IMG/VR virus record: IMGVR_UViG_3300033073_001045
Coordinates: 40,004 to 104,003 of that record
Strand: one strand, 5' to 3'
Length of the DNA: 64,000 nt
DNA from: a virus
Taxonomy: Duplodnaviria; Caudoviricetes
The notes beneath the pieces are model-generated. The model saw only the letters and a program-made list of their open reading frames with translations, searched no databases and was not told where the DNA came from. A program made the translations under genes and the position numbers. Of the stretch, positions 5,901 through 63,218 are shown one piece after another (position 1 is the stretch's first letter; each line of letters opens with the position of its first letter).

Positions 5901-8900
5901 TAGTATATCCATATGGCATCTCTTTAGCTAATTCTGCTGCAAATTTATCATACAAGAAATTTTGAGCCCTCTTTGTTAAACCACTCTTGCCAAATAATTT
6001 TTCGCCCATTCCAATTGTTAATGAGTTTACGCCCCATGGAGCTGACTGATACATGCCTGGCTTTGGCTCTCCAGTTGGTCCAAATCCAGCACCAATTCTA
6101 AACATTGCTCTACCTTTTGTTACATTTCCAATTAAACCACCAATTGCAAATCCATTTGCTGCTGTTTTAAATGCAGCATCTGATAAGCTAACAGAATGAC
6201 CTGATTGTCTACGCTTAAGTTCATCTGCAGCTAACAATTTTGCAATTGCTGCTGGAGTCATAGGCTTGGCTTCTGAAACCTTTACAGATGAATGAATACC
6301 GTGAAGTTCTCTCCAATTTACAGATCTTGCATCAGATAATCTTTTTATCATTGCGTTATAAATTACTTTTTCTTCTGCATTTAAATCAAAAGAAGAAATT
6401 GTTTGTTTTAATTTTGGAAGTGCTTTGTCTATTTCTTTTATCATTCTGTCATGATATTGATCTGCAGTCATACTCTTTGGTACATCGACTGTTGCCTCGG
6501 CAAAGAATTTTTTAGCACCACCCTTTACACCAAGCAAATTAATAACAGCCTGATCTTTCATTGAAGGCATAGTTGCAGAGTAATCTCTTAATCCAGAAGC
6601 AGCGCTAAATACACCAGCTGGTCCAACATCGGCCAAAATATCTCCAGAAAGATTTCCTTTGGCTAAATCTTTATCTCCACGCAATGCAGAGGCAACTAAC
6701 TGTTTAAAATATTGATCTGTTGTAAATTTTCCATCTTGCTTTGCAAAGGCTTCATCATATTTAGATTCAAGAGCAAGTAGTCTTCTTTTACCCATTGGGT
6801 CTGTTGGGTCATTTATTACAACAACTTTTTGTTTTGGAGATTTTAGTCCGTGGACATCACGAGCAATTTGTGTTGCTCTTAGTTCTGCTAGAGCAGCCTT
6901 TTCATCAAGAACTGGCTTTACAAATACTTTATCTCCACCCTTTGAATATATACCACCAATTCCTGGAACTGGGAAGCTTCTCCCAGATGTAGGCTCAAGC
7001 AAATCATCATATTGAGTTACTGGCTTATGTGCAAATCTTGATTCTGCAACAGCAGCACTTGCTTTCTCCATTGCAATTTTCATAGCTCTTTGCTGTTCAA
7101 CTTGTTTAATTGCTCTAGGCATTCCTAAAAATAGTCTGCCTACTCCACCACCGCCAAATAATTTTTGTGCAAATATTTGTCCACCACTATTTGCTGCACG
7201 TTCAAGGTGTGCAAATCCAAGAGCTCTAGATGCTGCTCCCCTTCTCATAAGTTTAAATAAACTTGGGAGTGAAATTATTCCTTTACTTCTATCTAAAATT
7301 GCTTGAGGTACAGTTGTTCCAAATCTTTTTAGCCAAGCATTATCTTGTAGCTTAATAGCTTTATCTGTCATTAGTACTTCGTCTGGGAAGTAAGAGAAAG
7401 ATCTTTGTCCCTTAATCATTAATGCTCTTCTTACATCATTAGCGGCTAGATTTAAATCGGCTTCTCCCCAAAATGCTTGTCCAAAGTTACCAGCAGCCTT
7501 ATAACCCCATTTTGCATCTGGGCTTGTATGTGTACTGTGTAAGTTTGTAGCTGATACCTTGCCGTATTTATCAATTACCCAATTACCATTCTTTGATTCA
7601 AATCCTAAATCTTTAAATAGCCTATCTACAAAATCTTTACCGCCAAATTTATCTGGATTATTTCTTATATGATCAAGCATTTCTGCAGTAGGTCTAGCAT
7701 CACTTGCACCTATTCTTGCAGCCGCATTGGTATTAAGTTGTCTACGCTTTAATGGCTCTAGTCCAGCATTTGCATCTTTTACAATTTTAACTGCTTTTAC
7801 AAATTGCTTTTCTCTTATCTTTCTCCAAGCATTTTTATCTATAGTACCATTTTCAGTCATTGCGCCTTTAGGTTTAGGCAGCATAGCCTCTTCATAATTT
7901 TGTGTAGCTATTCTAACAGCATCATCAATTGCAATTCCTTTATTATTTAATACTGTTGCATCATGCATTATACTTCTATGCTGTAGTTCTTTTTGCCATC
8001 CACCATTTTGCATTGCATTTTGATATCTTTCTTGTAAACGAAGAATTTTTTTCCATGTTGTCCAATCTGGATTTCCACCAGACTCCAAACCAAATCCAGT
8101 TTTTCCAGGACCTCCATTTAGCGCATACATCAATGGCATATTTTTTTGTGCAATGTCTGCAGGAACAACTGCTTCTCCTGGAGTCAATACGACAGGTACG
8201 TTTCCTCCAGAATTTCTATATACTGGTCTTCCACCAAGTAAATCTTGAATTATTGGCATGTTTGCCTGTGTACCAGCTTTATTTATTACAAACGATCCAG
8301 CCTCTGCTGTTGTATGATACGTGTCAGTATTTCCAGTTCCTGGAACAATTCCACCCTTTGCAAGCTTAGGCTTTGTTGTTTGAATATTATATCCAGCTCC
8401 AGAAGTTCTAACGCCACCAAGCGCTCTTGCAATTCTATCTGCTATTTCTTTTGTTGTTCCCTTATGAAACATTTCTTTCATGTTTGACTTGCCAGTAACT
8501 GGATCAACAACTGGCTGTGATGTTAATGGTACTGTAGTTAAATTTGCAACTCTTCCCATAGATGCGGCAGTCATGCTTGCTGTCTCTGCAAGCATCGCTT
8601 CTACTGTTGCGTTGAGCTGAATTATTTTTGCTCTTGCCTGATCTACTGTTATTTTATTTGCTTGAACTTCAGCAACTATAGCCTGAACTTCTCTTGCAGC
8701 CAAATCTGTTATTTCAGAGAACTGAGGAAGTAGGGCCTGATATGCATCTGTTAAACTAGAAGTCACTGTTCCAGTTGCCATTACTTCTGTCTTAAGGGCT
8801 TTTATTTCTGCTTCTGACTGCATGGCAATTGCAGCTGTCATCGCATGCCACTTAGCAGCCTCCTGGGCAACAATTCCAGTAGATGTGCCATTAATCGATG

Positions 8901-51722: not shown

Positions 51723-51872
51723 TGTGTGCCTAACTTTTTAAGATATAAGACCCATTTGTAAATGGTCTTTACAGACAGCAACCATTGCATAGTCTATAGC
51801 GTCAGTATATAGCGCTTCTTTATCGCAATAATAACATTTTTCTTTTTCCATAGTTAAATAATTATACCATTG

Positions 51873-51947
51873 TAGGGATATTGGGATTTGAACCCAAAGT
51901 CGATTGTATATAAGACAATTGCTTTAACCAGATTAAGCTATATCCCC
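51873..51947 (-). tRNA. tRNA-Ile (anticodon UAU)
   Basis: GGGGATA/TATCCCT acceptor, GCTT/AAGC D-stem, ATTGT-CT TAT AT-ACAAT anticodon arm, TTGGG-TTCAAAT-CCCAA T-arm; discriminator A, no encoded CCA. Confidence 0.9.
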
Positions 51948-52557: not shown

Positions 52558-52632
52558 GCGTGTCGTGTTGATAATGTCCCCTCTATACGCTACAATTTCA
52601 GACATAAAGAACTAACGAAAGAAGAACAATAA

Positions 52633-52785: not shown

Positions 52786-53424
52786 TGATGACTAAATGGG
52801 ATACAATTCAATCAGACCTAGACCCAGTAACACCTAAGTATTGGGGAGATGAACACGAATTTGATAAGTCAATAGATGATGATGACGATATTGAATTCTC
52901 ACTAGATAATTGGGAGGAGATGTAATGACTACTAATCGCCTACTAACTACCGCCGTTCAATTAGGCATAGGTATCCCTGCGCTATATATGGCGAGGATCG
53001 TATTCCGTGATTTCGTAGCGGAGATGCGTGAAATGTGGCACGAATCACAATAAAATAACGGCGTGTCGGCTTGACAAAATCAAGCTGGCCCGCAAAGGCA
53101 CGGGGTCGGGCGTGTCGTTATGAAAGAGTTATAAAAACCCTGAAAATTTACGGCGTGTCGATTTGACAGACAATTCGGACATTTTTATGTGATGAGTATC
53201 ACACGACTTGAGCGTCTCAAAGTTTGGAATTACTGGCTAGTAATGTGAAAAATGTCAGTGGCTTAGGCTATAATTGCAGACATAACAACGAAAGAAAGAA
53301 GGTCTTAAATGAACCTAGAAGAATTCAAGGCTCACGTTATCGCACAACGTGAAGCAAGCAAGGCGGAAGCGTTGTCAGTGCTATCTGCTACAATTACCAA
53401 AACAACAAAGAAAGGCGACAACTA

Positions 53425-53625: not shown

Positions 53626-53918
53626 ATGGGATTTATTGAATTCGCTAGAATAAATGAAGATGGAGTTTCTTGGGTAGATTTATCCGAAGCGACACCTGAT
53701 GAATTATTCAACATTGAATTAGGCTTACTAAATGAGGGAGCCCTATTCAATACACCTGAAGCCAAATAAGAAAGGAAAACTAAAATGGTAAAAGATGTAA
53801 AAGAAATAATTGCCGTTTCTTGTGATGAGTGTGGCGGTGCAGGTTTCCTATTTTGGGGAGATGAAAATAACTATGATGTAGAAGCGTGTGATTGCGCTCT
53901 TGATGATTGGAACATTTA

Positions 53919-54128
53919 ATGTATAAAATAACTTTATCTTATGACGGCAACGCTCCGCATTGGCAAAAAGACTATGACAACGAATTTGAGGCTTGGAAAG
54001 ATTTCTTTGCTTTCGTTGATTGGGGTTTCGCTAACGAATACTCAACTGTAAATCTTTATAATTCAGAATTGAAATGCTTTACCCGTCATTTCTATCGTGA
54101 GGGAAGAAAGGTCGTAACTGTAAAATGA
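53919..54128 (+). CDS. Hypothetical early protein
   Basis: In a run of overlapping small ORFs; likely start MYKI. Confidence 0.55.
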   Translation: MYKITLSYDGNAPHWQKDYDNEFEAWKDFFAFVDWGFANEYSTVNLYNSELKCFTRHFYREGRKVVTVK

Positions 54129-54313: not shown

Positions 54314-54639
54314 AAAGAAAAGGAACAGAAAATGACAAAAGAAAAAGTAAAACGTGTTCAAGAATTGCGCCGATCAAATGCAGCAACACCAATTCCATCT
54401 AAGAAAAAATATAAACGTAAAGTAAAACACAAAAAAGAAAAATATTTAAAAACTTATTGCGAATTGGTAGCTCCATTTTTTGAATAGTTGAATTTTCAAC
54501 TATTCGCCCGCAAAAGCGTGGGGGCTATATGTGATTTAAGACACAATGTGATTTTCCCCACAAAATTTACGGCGTGTCGTTTTGTAAATGTCAGTCTATT
54601 CTGTTATAATTCTATCACCAACCAACGAAAGGCCAATTC

Positions 54640-55359
54640 ATGAAACTAAAAAGGTCTAATGATAGAAAGGTGGCTAACCTTGTCACTAAAAATGGAAAGC
54701 AGGCAGCAATTGCTAACACGTTCGGATTGCCCGCAGGAAAAAACTATTCATGTCCTGGCGCAACGTCTATCTGTGAGACTGTTTGCTACGCTGGCAAATT
54801 GGAAAAGTTATTCCCAGGAGTAAAAACTAATCTTCTGCATAACTGGGATCTTCTTAAAGACGCAGATAGCAAAACGATGATTTCTCTTCTTGATGAAATG
54901 ATTAAAGAATTCAAGGCTGATTGTCTTAAGAAAGACGCCCCTATGTTATTCCGTATTCACTGGGACGGAGATTTTTTTAGCGACGCTTATGCATATGCAT
55001 GGAAAAACGTTATCTCTAGTCATGAAGATGTTCAATTCTGGGTATATACACGTGTAAAGTCTGCAGCGCTTATTCTTAAGGATGTATCTAATCTTTCACT
55101 GTACTATTCAACGGATGATGAGAATAAAGAAATTGCATTCGATTTAAAAACTAATTCTAAGGTCCGCCTTGCTTACCTAGGCAAGACATTCGCCTCAACC
55201 GAAGACACAATGAAAGAATTAACTGGAAAGCCTGGCGCTAAGTGCCCTGAAAATAATAAAAGCATTCCATTAATTTCTGGCAATGGGTCCGCCTGTGTTT
55301 CATGTGGCTTGTGTGTCTACGGTAAAGCAGACATTCGATTTTCTGCGAGTAAAAAATGA
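54640..55359 (+). CDS. GP88-like (radical-SAM-related Fe-S) protein
   Basis: CPGATSICETVCYA, RIHWDGDF, FWVYTR and C-terminal CP...CxxCxxC. Confidence 0.75.
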   Translation: MKLKRSNDRKVANLVTKNGKQAAIANTFGLPAGKNYSCPGATSICETVCYAGKLEKLFPGVKTNLLHNWDLLKDADSKTMISLLDEMIKEFKADCLKKDAPMLFRIHWDGDFFSDAYAYAWKNVISSHEDVQFWVYTRVKSAALILKDVSNLSLYYSTDDENKEIAFDLKTNSKVRLAYLGKTFASTEDTMKELTGKPGAKCPENNKSIPLISGNGSACVSCGLCVYGKADIRFSASKK

Positions 55360-55702
55360 GCTCAACCGATTTTTTAGGAGCTGTGATTGGAATCATTCTT
55401 ATTTTATTTTTATGCTCTCCGATTGTACTAGCTATATATATGTGGACCAATGCAAAAATAGATATCGATAAAGACGGCAAGGATGATCTTCCTAATCGTT
55501 GGGATGGGTAACGGCGTGTCGTGTTGACAATTGTCAGCACGGCCCGTATATGTAGGGGGTTTTCCACAGGCTTACGGATAATTGTGGATAACCCTGGATT
55601 TTTGTGATGATTATCACAAAAGCTGCGACACGCCGATAATGGATTAGGAAATGTCGGTGGCTTAGGCTATAATACTATTATTCAACCAACGAAAGGTAAA
55701 AA

Positions 55703-56161
55703 ATGCTAAAAGAAAAAATCACAGTAGGCGAAGCCATAACACTTATTCATGATTCACTTATGACCTTTGAAGATGGTCTGCCAAGTGCAGATATTTCTGC
55801 AATTATTTATGCAATTAACAATGATATTCAGATTCGTGATTACTTGCTAGGACTTCCTGATACTTTCCCTATGGATACTTGCAAGGCATTCTTATCTTAT
55901 ATCTCTGATTCAGTAGATGGTGCAGAACGCTACTCAGTAGATACTATTGCTTCTGCATATTTCTTTGAAACTGGCGATATTGAAATGGCAGTAATGCTAC
56001 TTGCTACCGCTCTTGATACCAAGTCTGATTATTCTTTGGCTCTATTGCTAAAGCGTGTAGTTGAGGCAGGTTGGCCATCCGATTCTTTCCGCCGTATGCG
56101 TGAAGAATTGCACCCACAGGTAATTGCAAACCTAGAGGAAAAGCAAGACGAACTAATCTAG
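55703..56161 (+). CDS. DUF4192-like protein
   Basis: DIQIRDYLLG and ALxxxxDYSLALLLxRxxxAGWP motifs. Confidence 0.55.
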   Translation: MLKEKITVGEAITLIHDSLMTFEDGLPSADISAIIYAINNDIQIRDYLLGLPDTFPMDTCKAFLSYISDSVDGAERYSVDTIASAYFFETGDIEMAVMLLATALDTKSDYSLALLLKRVVEAGWPSDSFRRMREELHPQVIANLEEKQDELI

Positions 56162-56503: not shown

Positions 56504-56909
56504 TCTCACAATTAAATAATCTTAAATAGTAAAACAGGGCTAGACAAATGTCAGACCCCTATGTTAGAATACCTACCTACACAGAAAAGAGGCAAAAATG
56601 ACAATCAACGAAAAGTTGTATCAGGTTGGCGATTTATTCACCACCCTAAAGTCAAAGAAGACAGGTGTGATTAAAGAAATCCACCCACAGGCATCTGGCT
56701 CGGTGCGTGTGTTGCTAGAAATGCCAAACAAGGAAACTCGCTGGACAACAGTTTCAGCAAGCACTTTGGCAGTATAACTAAATAAACGAAACAGGGGCAG
56801 TTTCGGAAGTGTTCTAGCCCAATGTCGTAAGTAAGAACTTCCACCCTACGGGGTTGTCAGACCCCTATGTTATACTAACCACTAAACCAACCAACGAAAG
56901 AGGAAACAA

Positions 56910-57335
56910 ATGGCTAGAAACGGAAAATCTATTAGCGTGAAAATCGCTACACCAAAGGTAATCAAGGCACTAGAAACACGCCTTGCTGAATTGGAAAAGT
57001 CATACGCCACACAAGGCGAGAACGAGGCAAAGTATCAGAAAGCCCGTGATAAGTGGCAAAAGGAAATCGGTAAGTGGGCTGTTGCTAACTTTGCTAAGGC
57101 AGAGAACATCAGAACAAACTATCGCAACTGGAACAAAACTCTAAATGTAGATTTTGACCTTATTGTAAATGAAACTGATTTCCCTAAAGAGCCTGAAAAG
57201 GACTTTGAGATTATCCACTCTCACACTTACAATGAAATGAAAGAGGAAATCACGAACGCAATTCGTATCCTCAAAATGACAGACGAGGAAGTTGTAAATA
57301 CTTCTACTTACAACGCAATCGCCCGTTATCTATAA
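56910..57335 (+). CDS. Hypothetical early protein
   Basis: Own promoter (56855) and CCAACGAAAGAGG leader. Confidence 0.75.
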   Translation: MARNGKSISVKIATPKVIKALETRLAELEKSYATQGENEAKYQKARDKWQKEIGKWAVANFAKAENIRTNYRNWNKTLNVDFDLIVNETDFPKEPEKDFEIIHSHTYNEMKEEITNAIRILKMTDEEVVNTSTYNAIARYL

Positions 57336-57669: not shown

Positions 57670-57846
57670 TCCTGGGCTCTGCCCGCAATATTGAGGGGTT
57701 ATCCACAGCGTTACGGCCACCTGTGGATAACTCCTGAAAATTTGTGAGATTGATCACACGAGACAATTCGGACAAATGACTAACTAATCTTGTAAATGTC
57801 AGACCCCTTTGCTATAATTGCACAATCAACCAATCGAAAGGAAATC

Positions 57847-58892: not shown

Positions 58893-58965
58893 GGTTCGTT
58901 AGCTTAGCGGTTAAAGCGCTACCCTGTCACGGTAGAGATCACGAGTTCAAATCTCGTACGAATCG
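58893..58965 (+). tRNA. tRNA-Asp (anticodon GUC)
   Basis: GGTTCGT/ACGAATC acceptor, GCTT/AAGC D-stem, CTACC-CT GTC AC-GGTAG anticodon arm, ACGAG-TTCAAAT-CTCGT T-arm; discriminator G. Confidence 0.92.
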
Positions 58966-59082
58966 CTCTCATATAATGAGACGCCCGCAATATTGAGGGT
59001 GTGATGTTTATCATACGGAGGATCGAAAAAAACCCTGGAATTCTGTAGACAAATGTCAGTGGGGTCCTGTATAATTCTCGGC

Positions 59083-59691
59083 ATGTCAGAATTTAAATCA
59101 TATTGGTATGTATGTCAATCTTGTGATGCATCAATTGAAGTTGTGTCTAAGGGAATCCATTTCCAAGACCCAACATGTAATTGTAATAATTCAGAGGTTG
59201 TGTGGTGTCAGACCAGTGTGGTAGAATCAGACCCTACAAACGAAAGGCAACAAATGGAAACAACAACAAATTATGATGCTAATGTACTTGTAACTTACAA
59301 AGATATTACTGACGGTGTTACAACATATCCAACACTTAAGGTTAATGAACTTGAGTGGAAGTTGGAGCGAATCAAAAGACTAGAACAGCAGTTATCTTTT
59401 TCTAATGGTCAGATTAGCCGCATCATTGAAAACTTATCTGAAGATGGTTGGTTTAATCCAAACTATGAAAAGGAAGAAGTTCTCAACGACCTTTGTGAAA
59501 TTCTTGACTACGAACCAAAGAAAGAAATTTGTTTTGAGGGCGTAATTCATTTCTCAGGTCGTGTCGATGTTAAACTTTCAGAACTTGAAGACTTTGACCT
59601 TGATGACATGTTGTCAGAACTATCAGTTGATGTATACAACGGCGATGTTGTTATCGATGATTATTCAGTCGAAGATGTGCGTGAGTGCTAA
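59083..59691 (+). CDS. Hypothetical protein with N-terminal Zn-ribbon; second in-frame start at 59254
   Basis: Leaderless ATG 7 nt after TATAAT; CQSC...CNC; internal promoter 59206 and AACGAAAGG RBS before METTT. Confidence 0.65.
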   Translation: MSEFKSYWYVCQSCDASIEVVSKGIHFQDPTCNCNNSEVVWCQTSVVESDPTNERQQMETTTNYDANVLVTYKDITDGVTTYPTLKVNELEWKLERIKRLEQQLSFSNGQISRIIENLSEDGWFNPNYEKEEVLNDLCEILDYEPKKEICFEGVIHFSGRVDVKLSELEDFDLDDMLSELSVDVYNGDVVIDDYSVEDVREC

Positions 59692-59906
59692 TGTATTTTG
59701 AGTTAACTGCAAAAGATGAACGTTCCCTCCGTCTCTCATTTTGGGAGGCGGAGGTAATGGGACTCGATCCTGAATATACTAGCCGTGCATTGACTTTCAG
59801 CATAGGAACTGGTAGTATTGAGAAAGTGAGTAACATCAGAGATAAGTTTAATTTAACAGAAACTTACTGGTCTGATGCAGAACCAACAGGATACACAGGG
59901 AGATAA
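59691..59906 (+). CDS. Hypothetical protein
   Basis: Start overlaps the upstream stop. Confidence 0.55.
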   Translation: MYFELTAKDERSLRLSFWEAEVMGLDPEYTSRALTFSIGTGSIEKVSNIRDKFNLTETYWSDAEPTGYTGR

Positions 59907-60050
59907 AATGTCAGACTATAAAGATGGTTTTGAAGATGGTTATAAGTTTGCTCGTGAAGAGCTAATGGAAAAGCTTTCAGAGATTGATATCACTGATATC
60001 GACTCTTGGATTCTTGACCGTCTTGCAGAAATGATTGAGGGTGGCTCTCT

Positions 60051-60248
60051 ATGAGAGATAGAGAATACATTCCTTGCGATGCCTGCGGATCATCTGACTC
60101 TATGTATTTAGTTAAACTAGTAGATGGCGAGCTATCTTTTTGCGGCCACCATTACAATAAAAACAAAGAGGCGCTAGACAAAGTTGCCTATGAAGTGATA
60201 GAATTAAACAAGACAGAAGAAGTACCTCAACTAGAAACGGCGGAATAA
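60051..60248 (+). CDS. Small Zn-binding protein
   Basis: CDAC...FCGHH. Confidence 0.65.
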   Translation: MRDREYIPCDACGSSDSMYLVKLVDGELSFCGHHYNKNKEALDKVAYEVIELNKTEEVPQLETAE

Positions 60249-60249
60249 A

Positions 60250-60618
60250 ATGGGTGACAGAGCAAACTTTGGATTTAAAGATTCCAAGGGCGATACAGTA
60301 TTTCTATACGGGCACTGGGCTGGCCATAGAATGCTAGAGAACTTGGCGGATGCTGTAGAGCATGCACGTCCACGGTGGAATGATGAATCATATGCAACAC
60401 GTATTACTATTAGCAGGCTAGTAAATGAAGAATGGACTAGTGAGACTGGATGGGGTATTACCGTAAATGAATTGGCGGACAATGAGCACAAGGTACCTAT
60501 TATTGACTGGACCAACAAAACATTTACATTAATGGAAGAGGACCTTAAGACAGAAGTATTTAGTTTAACTCTAGATAAATTTGTCGATAAGTATTCTAGT
60601 CAACTAAGTATGGTATAA
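60250..60618 (+). CDS. Hypothetical protein
   Basis: MGDRA...LYGHWAG...RWNDESYATRI. Confidence 0.7.
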   Translation: MGDRANFGFKDSKGDTVFLYGHWAGHRMLENLADAVEHARPRWNDESYATRITISRLVNEEWTSETGWGITVNELADNEHKVPIIDWTNKTFTLMEEDLKTEVFSLTLDKFVDKYSSQLSMV

Positions 60619-60625
60619 TTAGACC

Positions 60626-60782
60626 AGGACCCTTGGTCCTGGTTTTAATAGGAAATGAATGGTGCATCTATTAGTCTACGGGCCAGGTGCTAAGTAAAGC
60701 GGATTTATTTCTTTCGTTGGAAATCCAGGCAGCCAATTCATACCCCCTAGTCAGCTTCAACTCTGATCCTAGGGGGTTTCTA
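60626..60782 (+). ncRNA. Candidate trans-acting antisense sRNA
   Basis: TGGTATAAT at 60611-60619; outer stem 60656-65/60729-40; GGATTT/AAATCC hairpin with loop ATTTCTTTCGTTGG; terminator ACCCCCTAG...CTAGGGGGT-TTC. Confidence 0.6.
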
Positions 60783-60959
60783 TTTGCCCGCAAAAAGCTG
60801 AGGGTAACATATCTCTTTTACGGATGTCAAGTAAATACCCTGAAAATTCCACATAGTAAGATCAATTTTGATCAAATGTGGTGGGAATCACAGGAGCATA
60901 GTATTCCATTTGTCAGTGGTCTGATATATAATTCTCTTATATCAACGAAAGGATATAAA

Positions 60960-61733
60960 ATGCCAAATTGGGTATATAACACATTAACAATTCAAGGACC
61001 TAAGTCTGAAATTGATATGATTAAAGATAGACTTAATAAGCCTTTTACATTAGCACAAGAGACATTTGGTATGGGTGATATTAGTTCATCAGGATTCCCC
61101 ACCAAAATTAAATTAGTTGAATACAATAATCCTGTATTTGCTTTCCATAACATCCATTCATATAAGGATTATGGCATTACTGATGAGGAATATGCATGCC
61201 AGCCAAATCGTGATGGTGTAGACATGACACAGCCTGATTGGTTTGCTAAGTCTGTTGAGTTTGCTAAAACTCAAAAAGATTGGTATTCATGGAACAATAC
61301 TAACTGGGGAACTAAATGGGATGTTGCTGTTCGTGATGATGATGAGTATCCAAACACAGAACTAATTGAATATAAGTCTGAGGGTGATGACAACTGGCTT
61401 GTATATAAATATGAAACTGCATGGTCTCCTGCCGTAACTATTCTAACTAAACTAAGTAATCTTGTTCCAAATTCCGTCCTTACTCTTGAATATGAAGAGG
61501 AGACAGGCTGGGGTGGAGAATATGAGATTATCCGTGGTGAGGTTAAAGAATTAGCCGAATGGGAAAATCGTTGCTATGCTTGCCAATCTTTTGATACATT
61601 GTCTTATTGTGAAGATGATTGCGGTGAGTTCTGCTCTAATTGCAATCAGGGTTCATGGCAGGATGAAGAGGCTATGAAAGAATGTCAGACCCATAAGGTA
61701 TTATTGGAATCTACAGAAAAGGTGGAAGCATAA
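60960..61733 (+). CDS. YubB/Api92-like ferredoxin-fold protein
   Basis: MPNWV start after promoter 60911; WNNTNWGTKWD and YETAWSP motifs. Confidence 0.75.
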   Translation: MPNWVYNTLTIQGPKSEIDMIKDRLNKPFTLAQETFGMGDISSSGFPTKIKLVEYNNPVFAFHNIHSYKDYGITDEEYACQPNRDGVDMTQPDWFAKSVEFAKTQKDWYSWNNTNWGTKWDVAVRDDDEYPNTELIEYKSEGDDNWLVYKYETAWSPAVTILTKLSNLVPNSVLTLEYEEETGWGGEYEIIRGEVKELAEWENRCYACQSFDTLSYCEDDCGEFCSNCNQGSWQDEEAMKECQTHKVLLESTEKVEA

Positions 61734-61887
61734 TGGATACAGCATATAAGCCGTATACAATTGATGAACTAATCACAACTATCTATGAAGATAATTATTC
61801 ACATATTGAATTTATGGAAAATATGAATGGCGGAGATTGCGATTGTAATATACATTCAGCAATGAATCTAATAGAAAGTTATATGTA

Positions 61888-62106
61888 ATGGAAGAAATGA
61901 TCGCTTATCTTGAATTACATTTACTTAGTTTAGAACAAGATTCTGAAAAGCTTGAAAAACTAATGGATGCTTATTCTAACTATGAAGATGATGAGTATAG
62001 AGAATTAGAGATTGAAGATATTAGTACCAATGGACAGTATATTGCTACCGCCCACATTTTGTCAGTGGCTCGTGATATACTTGCCAAAACAACAAAGGAG
62101 CACTAA
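61888..62106 (+). CDS. Hypothetical acidic protein
   Basis: In a chain of overlapping ORFs. Confidence 0.55.
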   Translation: MEEMIAYLELHLLSLEQDSEKLEKLMDAYSNYEDDEYRELEIEDISTNGQYIATAHILSVARDILAKTTKEH

Positions 62107-62405
62107 TGCACTACGATATTGAAAACTCAGAGGACCTTGCACCACATCTACAGCGTATGGTAGACCATGGAGTAAATGGTCTTGACATCATGCATGGGGA
62201 ACTTAAGAATCTCATGCTAATGGCTGATTCACAACTTGAGGAGGCACAGCGTATTGAGGAAGAGAACGACTACTCAGACGCTATGGAATCTATGGAGCGG
62301 AAGTACTGGGAGGGCATGTCAGACGCTTATACACATTTGTACAAACTAACATATGACTTATCATTTGCAATTGCTGGACTACGAAAGGATGACAACGGTG
62401 AGTGA
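62106..62405 (+). CDS. Hypothetical acidic protein
   Basis: Promoter 62060 and AAGGAG RBS. Confidence 0.7.
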   Translation: MHYDIENSEDLAPHLQRMVDHGVNGLDIMHGELKNLMLMADSQLEEAQRIEEENDYSDAMESMERKYWEGMSDAYTHLYKLTYDLSFAIAGLRKDDNGE

Positions 62406-62757
62406 ATTAGATCTGCAGGAACAAACACGTAGAGACGATGTCTATAATGATTTAAACAATATTGTAGACCAATTGACAGCCTTGCCTGTCTTCCCGTCAC
62501 TGATGTGGGTATGGTCCTTTGACATCATTCGCAATATATTTGAAGAACATCAATTTGGAACAGAATGGGATGACTATTCAATTAAAGATAATGTAACACT
62601 TAAAGATATCTTTGATAAGTTTTGGGAAGATGTCGACAGTCTTGGAATTAACATGGATTTTGGTGGAGAGGTTGTTGAAGAAACAATCAGAGATTGGATG
62701 ATTGACAGGGAATTCCTGGCCATGGTTGAGGAGGAGGACGAAGATGAAGATGAGTGA
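62398..62757 (+). CDS. Hypothetical acidic protein
   Basis: GTG start at 62398 after ACGAAAGGA. Confidence 0.6.
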   Translation: MSELDLQEQTRRDDVYNDLNNIVDQLTALPVFPSLMWVWSFDIIRNIFEEHQFGTEWDDYSIKDNVTLKDIFDKFWEDVDSLGINMDFGGEVVEETIRDWMIDREFLAMVEEEDEDEDE

Positions 62758-63218
62758 TTCGTACATCAATGATCAATTAAGTAAAGCCCAACAACTCTTG
62801 TGGGGTGGCTCCGAAACTGAAAATATCGAAGCACATAACATCATTGCTAAATTAATTAAAGATCGTATCGAACAGGTCGAATCGATCTAAGGGCAAAAAA
62901 AATTGTTTACGGCAACTATTTACAAATTCCTGAAAAGTTGCTATAATAAATAAAACAACTATCTCTTGAAAGGAGATTATCAAATGACAACAAAGCGTGA
63001 ATATCTAAAGCAGCAAGGCATTACAGTTGGCGTACGTGGCCGTTTCTCTGGCGCAGCCAAGGTAGCTCTAGCTGAGGCGGAAGCTAAGGGCATTAAGTTT
63101 ACAGCTGAGGTTCCTGCGAACAAGGCCAAGTAAAACCAGGGACGGGGTTTAGGAATCGTTGGTCCTTGACCTCGTCTCTTATTTTTGATATAATCAACGG
63201 TTAGGCGAGAGGCGGAAT

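Follow-up and report, generated by a model that had tools for sequence, protein, structure and literature searches.

Can a phage place a subset of its own genes under one small RNA through a short tag in their leaders? This question is raised by the spacer at 60611-60785 (+ strand) of a 64,000-nucleotide (nt) stretch of viral DNA, which is called the window here. The window is the last 64 kb of one viral contig of 104,003 base pairs (bp) with a G+C content of 36.5%, and positions without a contig label refer to it. The original prediction had placed in the spacer a hairpin small RNA acting as a master switch of the whole regulon of genes with TGTC promoters. We computed the gene anatomy, the fold, the loop conservation, and the co-occurrence and neighbour covariation of the loop with a leader tag, AACGAAAG. 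We found that the RNA is not a simple hairpin but a conserved three-way junction, whose scaffold also occurs with other P2 arms, and that its P2 loop here is complementary to the tagged leaders. With moderate confidence, and from sequence comparison, we read it as a trans-acting antisense RNA that would block the ribosome-binding sites of the tagged phage mRNAs.

The gene begins with an extended -10 promoter, TGGTATAAT (60611-60619), which overlaps the stop codon (60616-60618) of a gene for a 122-aa protein (60250-60618), and transcription is predicted to start near 60626. From sequence and folding, an element at 60621-60646, consisting of a G+C-rich 5' hairpin, ACCAGGACC/GGUCCUGGU (60623-60643), and a following UUUU, is likely the terminator of the upstream gene. 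It may have a dual role, since a start near 60626 lies inside the 5' arm and the small RNA would carry a shortened 5'-terminal stem-loop. The three-way-junction core spans 60655-60741. According to the fold of the window and the alignment, the outer stem P0 pairs 60655-60663 with 60732-60741; in the alignment, P1 pairs 60664-60669 with 60685-60690 and bears an apical extension, and the joint J1/2, UAAGUAAA, occupies 60691-60698. The P2 arm (60699-60730) contains the hairpin GGAUUU/AAAUCC (60701-60706/60721-60726), which presents a 14-nt loop, AUUUCUUUCGUUGG (60707-60720), the proposed seed, with the core CUUUCGUU at 60711-60718. An intrinsic terminator (60743-60785) follows, with an 8-bp G+C stem, CCCCCUAG/CUAGGGGG (60743-60750/60769-60776), an inner stem, and the U-rich tail UUUCUAUUU to 60785. 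The promoter, hairpins, loop, terminator and leaders were thus found at the places that the original prediction had named.

The same layout was found in relatives. In most subgroups the motif TGnTAnnnT precedes the junction by 26-48 nt, even with a differing upstream gene, intervening sequence or 5' hairpin. About 7 nt past the -10, at the expected transcription start, a short hairpin begins whose sequence varies, and most relatives have a CCCCC.../...GGGGG terminator hairpin with a U run, also of varying sequence, downstream of the junction. In one subgroup P0 is immediately preceded by a plain -10-like hexamer, and both the 5' hairpin and the terminator are absent. Computation supports a separate RNA gene with its own conserved promoter and terminator on the + strand; its status as an own transcription unit, claimed earlier, agrees with the conserved extended -10 and terminator around the junction in several subgroups, as predicted from sequence. 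The same extended -10 class, without a -35, stands before minus-strand operons at 51869, 50540, 33924, 23281 and 15804. These structural operons have GGAG-type ribosome-binding sites, which are not matched by the P2 loop. The promoter is thus of the class that had been called late-type, in the sense of being shared with the structural operons; late timing is not included in this statement.

To place the RNA among relatives, more than 140 related IMG/VR loci, mostly on 100-116 kb contigs, were collected via two flanking proteins; 99 related IMG/VR loci formed the covariance-model search set, and the MAFFT alignments held 33 and 58 distinct sequences. The covariance model R1 matched 60656-60739 of the window (75.4 bits, E 4e-15), gave one match per locus in about 90 of the 99 loci, and found a single copy in a search of the whole genome. 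Standard pairs filled 96.7% of pair cells, compared to 80.9% after shuffling and 25-48% with slid partners, and compensatory (two-sided) changes occurred in 14 of the 16 pairs; these counts were taken on the model-fitted alignment and lean to the model, with the same exchanges visible in the MAFFT alignments. P0 reads ..UGGU/GCCA.., with outer pairs that co-vary (AUGG/CCAU, GUGG/CCAC, GGG/CCC, AGG/CCU). P1 reads GCnnCU.../...AGnnGC with AU, GC, CG and GU exchanges, and its apical part is variable or absent. The single-stranded joint UAA(G/A)UAAA is nearly invariant, and P2 opens with GC and closes with (A)GC, followed by one A and the 3' strand of P0. Because the invariant U-G and the frequent G-U pairs fit the + strand only, the RNA is assigned to that strand. 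Two further pairings were tried and rejected: an inner P2-loop helix AUUUCU/GGAAAU, proposed by RNAalifold, is absent in the GGAUCU/AGAUCC subgroup and the large-loop subgroups and is not general, and a pairing of J1/2 with UUUACU of large P2 loops shows no matching change when J1/2 changes.

Rfam 15 at gathering thresholds found only two tRNAs in the whole window, and at E up to 10 it gave three chance-level matches in 60560-60960, with 14-15 bits against thresholds of 50-100. By these sequence searches the RNA family is previously undescribed, with no matching Rfam family, C4, 6C and riboswitches included. The only frames at the element are one of 12 codons (60655-60693) and a 40-aa minus-strand open reading frame (ORF), and coding is excluded because relatives differ by 1-2 nt indels and lose the 12-codon frame. 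Freshwater viral metagenomes are rich in this family, with about 90 loci and more than 100 listed matches to a sequence pattern. A pattern scan of bacterial and archaeal genomes gave at least 120 matches; among the matches listed, the fold was present only in L231, the rest being chance matches as expected from the loose gaps in the pattern, and there was no host-encoded copy among them. L231 is a 3.5-kb contig in a Bacteroidia-labelled metagenome-assembled genome, and its RNA copy is of the same type as the phage copies; it is most likely phage DNA binned by mistake and gives no clue to the host.

As the original prediction had noticed, the P2 loop is complementary to the leaders of the proposed early genes: over its full 14 nt it is perfectly complementary to the leader CCAACGAAAGAAAU. 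The + strand of the whole genome contains seven copies of AACGAAAG; each is preceded by a TGTC-N12-TAnnnT promoter, with 11-17 nt from the TAnnnT to the tag, and followed at 7-14 nt by a start codon. Two of these tags, at 52614-52621 and 53287-53294, follow TGTC promoters at 52575 and 53253, with predicted loop duplexes of -15.7 and -15.9 kcal/mol. The tag at 54624-54631 precedes a GP88-family gene (54640-55359; -15.9 kcal/mol) and that at 55688-55695 a gene at 55703-56161 (-15.8 kcal/mol). The best target, at 56893-56900, belongs to a gene at 56910-57335 (-17.7 kcal/mol). Another tag, at 59239-59246, follows a TGTC promoter at 59206, and the last, at 60944-60951, precedes an Api92-like (DUF1281_C) gene (60960-61733; -14.7 kcal/mol). 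In addition, a DUF932 gene on the same + strand has the variant leader CCAAUCGAAAGG with one extra base (57830-57841; -14.4 kcal/mol with a bulge), and the leader at 62381 has a partial tag. Written in full, the tagged leader is AACGAAAGG, and a natural untagged form is AAAGAAAGG. The tag thus stands on 7 exact and 1 near of the 16 TGTC leaders in this genome, and to speak of a master switch of the whole TGTC regulon was too strong.

Since target ranking by crude ORF starts was unreliable, several starts being misplaced, the loop was scanned for duplexes against both strands of the 104-kb genome. The results showed that seven of the leaders were among the 14 best sites, with leader duplexes of -14.4 to -17.7 kcal/mol against a genome mean of -4.4 (standard deviation 2.1). 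For the longer string CAACGAAAG the window has 7 copies where 0.3 are expected, and 0 of 100 shuffles reached 7; five copies are + strand leaders, one is the reverse complement in the P2 loop, and one is a reverse complement in an ORF at 54010. The predicted mRNA 5' ends are 4-10 nt away from the tag, in which GAAAGG is the Shine-Dalgarno part, complementary to CCUUUC at the 3' end of 16S rRNA, and the AAC in front is without such an explanation. One 9-mer match alone goes only weakly beyond chance; the loop/leader match is significant because it is conserved in relatives. As a separate observation, a second + strand CTTTCGTTG without a hairpin lies at 54010-54018 inside the small ORF 53907-54128; it is probably a chance copy and would place an anti-leader sequence inside an mRNA.

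Across relatives the tag was found with the loop. In 145 loci (1.12 Mb), ACGAAAG occurs 567 times on the gene strand and 150 times on the other strand, the latter being about one per locus. We found AACGAAAG in 209 of 359 TGTC leaders of loop-bearing loci compared to 5 of 33 in loop-less loci (Fisher 1.7e-6), the loop-less group comprising phages whose RNA has another P2 and phages without the RNA. A second sample, drawn by pattern and with contigs partly overlapping the first, gave 492 of 715 leaders with the loop and 0 of 16 without, so that 58-69% of TGTC leaders are tagged in loop-bearing phages of the two samples. The leader of the Api92 gene allows a comparison of orthologs: it is tagged in 54 of 68 loop-bearing relatives, untagged in the other 14 (mostly AGCGAAAGG or AUCGAAAGG), untagged in 11 loop-less relatives, and tagged in one truncated locus. 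The orthologous leaders of loop-less phages read AAAGAAAGG, AAGGAAAGG, ACAGAAAGG or CCGAAAGG and keep their TGTC promoters. In untagged orthologous leaders the Shine-Dalgarno GAAAGG is retained and only the AAC part is lost. In the Api92 gene tree, a weak guide since the phages are mosaic and only one gene is used, loop-less phages stand at four separate places and their leaders are always without the tag. The whole contigs of three loop-less phages contain no CUUUCGUU hairpin anywhere, and stray CTTTCGTT copies in the loop-less genomes G001-G004 are all within open frames and without a hairpin.

The position beside the core also varies with the leader. If the loop has C in front of the core, the tag is followed by G in 97 of 106 cases; if it has U, which pairs with G or A, by G in 63 and by A in 24; and if it has A, the counts are 35 and 21. 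The association of loop base and leader base at this position is significant (Fisher 3e-6), and computation on the sequences supports co-variation in the direction that pairing predicts. Conservation of the loop, which had been put forward as a check, is plain: CUUUCGUU is invariant and co-occurs with the leader tag. Covariation of loop and leader came out divided, as the base before the core co-varies, no such change is seen 3' of the core, and the core itself is invariant.

The P2 arm is otherwise variable. Among 34 distinct P2 arms, stems have 3-9 pairs and loops 13 to about 23 nt, with stem sequence and loop flanks varying, and CUUUCGUU, often as CCUUUCGUU, is the sole loop stretch that all of them share; it matches the clade-wide leader core AACGAAAG(G) base for base as its complement. 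Other relatives carry a different arm. L070 and L072 have a junction RNA with the P2 loop CUGGGGGUGUU, and L049, L057 and L075 have mini P2 hairpins, GCGC-ACA-GCGC or GCGC-UUAG-GCGC; some relatives have no junction RNA within the locus. The loop CUGGGGGUGUU of L070 and G001 was tried as a reader of a shared leader and rejected, as it matched no set of ribosome-binding sites and only weakly a repeated GACACGCCCGAC box. Scaffolds with an unrelated or minimal P2 were observed at L070:5835-5915, L075:6102-6171 and L049:6254-6322 and on L331, L344, L361 and L376, and on some such contigs a TGTC promoter is missing over as much as 14 kb. The three-way-junction scaffold is a wider RNA family than its anti-leader version.

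The loop also occurs apart from the scaffold. In L017 the P2 loop is lost from the junction RNA and the tagged leaders are kept; a separate plain 11-bp hairpin with the loop UUCCCUUUCGUUG (6360-6400) lies past another gene, and L059 (5714-5749) and L060 have a similar extra hairpin. These scaffold-free, G+C hairpins of L017 and L059, with the loop (C)CUUUCGUU, stand between a gene end and a TATAAT promoter. That two different scaffolds present this loop suggests that the loop is the working part. We also observed that in L039:3714-3785 and L017:3715-3785 P2 is a short hairpin and the P1 apical loop reads ACC(C)UUUC(G/A), where the anti-Shine-Dalgarno-like sequence may have moved to the other arm.

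For the antisense model we infer transcription, pairing in the cell, repression as the direction of the effect, and its timing. An RNA of about 160 nt would start at the extended -10 (60611-60619) and carry the short hairpin, the three-way junction (60655-60741) and the terminator (60743-60785). The junction would hold out P2, whose loop core (C/U)CUUUCGUU would pair with AACGAAAG(G/A) in the short 5' leaders of 7-8 transcription units. Changing the loop from CUUUCGUU to CUUAGGUU would abolish this pairing, and a matching leader change would restore it. With a duplex of 8-13 bp (-14 to -18 kcal/mol) the RNA would mask the ribosome-binding site and block 30S binding on all tagged mRNAs together, since the tag includes the Shine-Dalgarno sequence and lies near the mRNA 5' end; faster decay of the tagged mRNAs is a possible extra effect. 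The tagged genes might be switched off when the extended -10 class is active, because the RNA shares its promoter class with the structural operons and not with its targets, whose class is TGTC. The early and late labels, the shut-off timing and the on/off circuit with PafBC in the original prediction are suppositions of this kind. A broader version of the model, which we regard as quite unlikely, makes the three-way junction a general display platform with an exchangeable P2 arm and a tag in chosen ribosome-binding sites. It would be an addressable RNA-guided silencing of the virus's own genes, possibly a ribonucleoprotein with a partner that recognises the invariant junction, and other P2 loops would address other targets.

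Several points weigh against the antisense model. Only about half of the TGTC leaders are tagged, and the predicted accessibility of the P2 loop is moderate, with a mean unpaired probability of 0.5-0.6 in the modelled transcript. The counts for co-occurrence lack phylogenetic independence and come down to 3-4 independent contrasts, too few for a sign test, and a G after the tag also strengthens the Shine-Dalgarno sequence, a second possible cause of the neighbour covariation. One complete relative (G003, behind L019) has 3-4 tagged TGTC-promoter leaders and five AACGAAAG copies in the early region, and its whole genome is without a detectable junction RNA and without a CUUUCGUU hairpin. For co-evolution of seed and target there is thus strong co-occurrence and neighbour covariation, yet the core is invariant, the contrasts are few, and one genome is tagged without the RNA. 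The extended -10 could equally be read by the host polymerase at once. Among three metatranscriptome runs a single one covered the region, with a contig of a relative, and carried-over DNA is a possible source: there were no contigs over 60521-60871 in runs X5 and X6, run X1 is probably DNA, and run X7 gave one 334-nt contig of a relative over 60420-60733, which as a contig does not give strand, ends or level. These contigs neither support nor refute transcription. Finally, the scaffold is more conserved than a mere loop holder needs, and about 10 of 112 viral contigs have it with a P2 arm that is minimal or unrelated. Its conservation with other P2 arms argues for a role beyond carrying the loop, which the antisense model does not explain.

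This last point leads to an alternative that we consider unlikely, namely that the main job of the structured RNA lies in the junction scaffold, through protein or ligand binding, and that the P2 loop recognises something other than leaders. The complementarity would then come from resemblance to the anti-Shine-Dalgarno/Shine-Dalgarno pair (CCUUUC/GAAAGG). GGUGC..., UAA(G/A)UAAA and GCAGCC are indeed more conserved than P2, J1/2 and the junction bases are invariant without a base-pairing reason, and the scaffold persists with mini or unrelated arms, also on contigs without TGTC promoters. However, the invariant loop core exceeds the anti-Shine-Dalgarno-like CCUUUC by GUU, the matching AAC of the leader is just what loop-less phages lose, and the same loop is also found on a plain hairpin without the scaffold. 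Pairing with the tagged leaders might also have another outcome, such as nuclease-guided mRNA processing, 5'-end protection or delayed translation. This would draw on the same pairing evidence as the antisense model, and both the distance of the tag from the predicted mRNA 5' end, only 4-10 nt, and a conserved scaffold that could recruit a protein partner are consistent with it. We judge it rather improbable: the duplex covers the Shine-Dalgarno sequence, and such duplexes of known small RNAs that target ribosome-binding sites block initiation. Moreover, the flanking genes change from subgroup to subgroup, so that no nuclease or partner gene is a constant neighbour.

A cis-acting leader, riboswitch-like or an attenuator, that governs read-through into the downstream Api92-like gene is suggested by a junction directly followed by a terminator, which looks like an aptamer with an expression platform, about 220 nt upstream of that gene in most loci. 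Such a leader is very unlikely, however, as the Api92-like gene has its own TGTC promoter and leader past the terminator, no alternative anti-terminator pairing is evident in the fold, one subgroup is without the terminator, in L018, L048, L052 and L067 the RNA is found on the other side of the Api92 gene, about 2.3 kb downstream, and there is no Rfam riboswitch match even at E up to 10. Hardly credible is the view that there is no functional RNA at all, only two terminators in a spacer and a chance loop match. A single 9-mer reverse-complement match is expected about 0.15-0.4 times in a genome of this size, and a second reverse-complement copy does occur in the ORF at 54010, but the comparison of relatives already contradicts this view: three helices show compensatory changes, the loop does not vary, about 100 divergent contigs have one copy per genome, and coding is excluded by the indels and the non-conserved frame.

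The genes near the locus belong to families typical of Actinobacteria phages (GP88 PF17338, DUF932, DUF4192 and Api92-like DUF1281_C). In a protein search the nearest cultured relatives of the DUF932 protein were from Streptomyces, Mycobacterium, Microbacterium and Arthrobacter phages, with at most 52% identity, and the host group of this low-GC phage of about 104 kb is actinobacterial. Among such bacteria, cultures of the Nanopelagicales type exist (PMC10202952). A near-identity search with 59000-63000 against 50,697 phage records gave no match. The phage has two tRNA genes, tRNA-Ile (anticodon TAT; 51872-51947, - strand) and tRNA-Asp (GTC; 58893-58966, + strand), the latter sitting among the TGTC-promoter genes. 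An inverted repeat, TTCCACAT...ATGTGGTGGGAATCACAGG (60872-60910), lies just upstream of the TGTC promoter of the Api92 gene and is conserved in relatives; by its sequence it looks like a candidate transcription-factor binding site. Past the RNA terminator, the block GCCCGC-N9-GAGGGTAACATATCTCTTTTACGGATGTCAA (60786-60830) is present in nearly all relatives and also adjoins the RNA at other genome positions (L018, L048). The block apparently moves together with the RNA gene; a promoter (TAnnnT after GGG), an operator and an additional piece of the RNA are possible readings. Upstream of the window, TGnTATAAT extended -10 promoters without a -35 were also seen in front of minus-strand operons at about 14514 and 12114 of the contig (G000:C1), each with a perfect hairpin at about +7 like the small-RNA gene; these hairpins may be 5' stabilising stem-loops or further small RNAs.

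Among known systems, the c4 antisense RNA of phages P1 and P7, the subject of work by Citron and Schuster in 1990, reportedly uses exposed loops to pair with the icd-ant ribosome-binding region and block translation. It is likewise a small structured RNA encoded by a phage, with short complementary boxes instead of full antisense overlap. However, c4 serves one immunity-region operon of temperate enterobacterial phages and is processed from the transcript of its target, whereas the RNA described here has its own promoter, 7-8 separate tagged transcription units as proposed targets, a different three-way junction and no match to the Rfam C4 model. In actinobacterial 6C, staphylococcal RsaE and RNAIII, and Bacillus RoxS, pyrimidine-rich hairpin loops pair with purine-rich Shine-Dalgarno regions of several mRNAs without Hfq. 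These are host RNAs with C-rich loops (CCCC/UCCC) and host regulons; the present RNA has the loop CUUUCGUU and an unrelated scaffold, and its gene and proposed targets are all on the phage. To our knowledge, Actinobacteria lack Hfq, and a loop-seed mode suits such hosts. The OOP RNA of lambda and the sar RNA of P22 are small cis-antisense phage RNAs that lie opposite a single target with full complementarity. They share with the present RNA the control of phage genes by pairing, but the latter lies on the same strand as its proposed targets, distant from them, and has a seed of 8-13 nt. The phage small RNAs that we know of so far act mostly on host genes or on a single phage operon.

In T4, RegB and RegA inactivate many early mRNAs through a short motif that these carry in the translation initiation region (GGAG for RegB), and thereby help the switch from one expression phase to the next (PMC3014915). 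The T4 factors, an endoribonuclease (RegB) and a translational repressor (RegA), are proteins, whereas the factor here is an RNA that would read its tag by base pairing; and in contrast to T4, untagged genes would be spared because the tag extends the Shine-Dalgarno sequence by AAC. By analogy, the working principle appears closest to c4 and to RNAs of the 6C/RsaE/RoxS type, and the biological role closest to RegB/RegA. The RNA belongs to none of these families, because no Rfam model matches and the fold differs. Within the terms searched, a review of phage-derived small RNAs mentions no RNA against a shared leader of the phage's own genes (PMC12197685). What we describe here is an undescribed RNA family combined with a tag-and-reader layout.

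These results add an unannotated RNA family with strong covariation support. The loop, the tag and the natural variants without one or both form a clean test system, in a group of hosts, the Actinobacteria infected by this phage family, in which RNA regulation is little known. It appears that the virus labels some of its own transcription units with an 8-9 nt tag, joined to the Shine-Dalgarno sequence, which a single RNA of the virus then reads; if true, this would be an RNA counterpart of RegA and RegB of T4.

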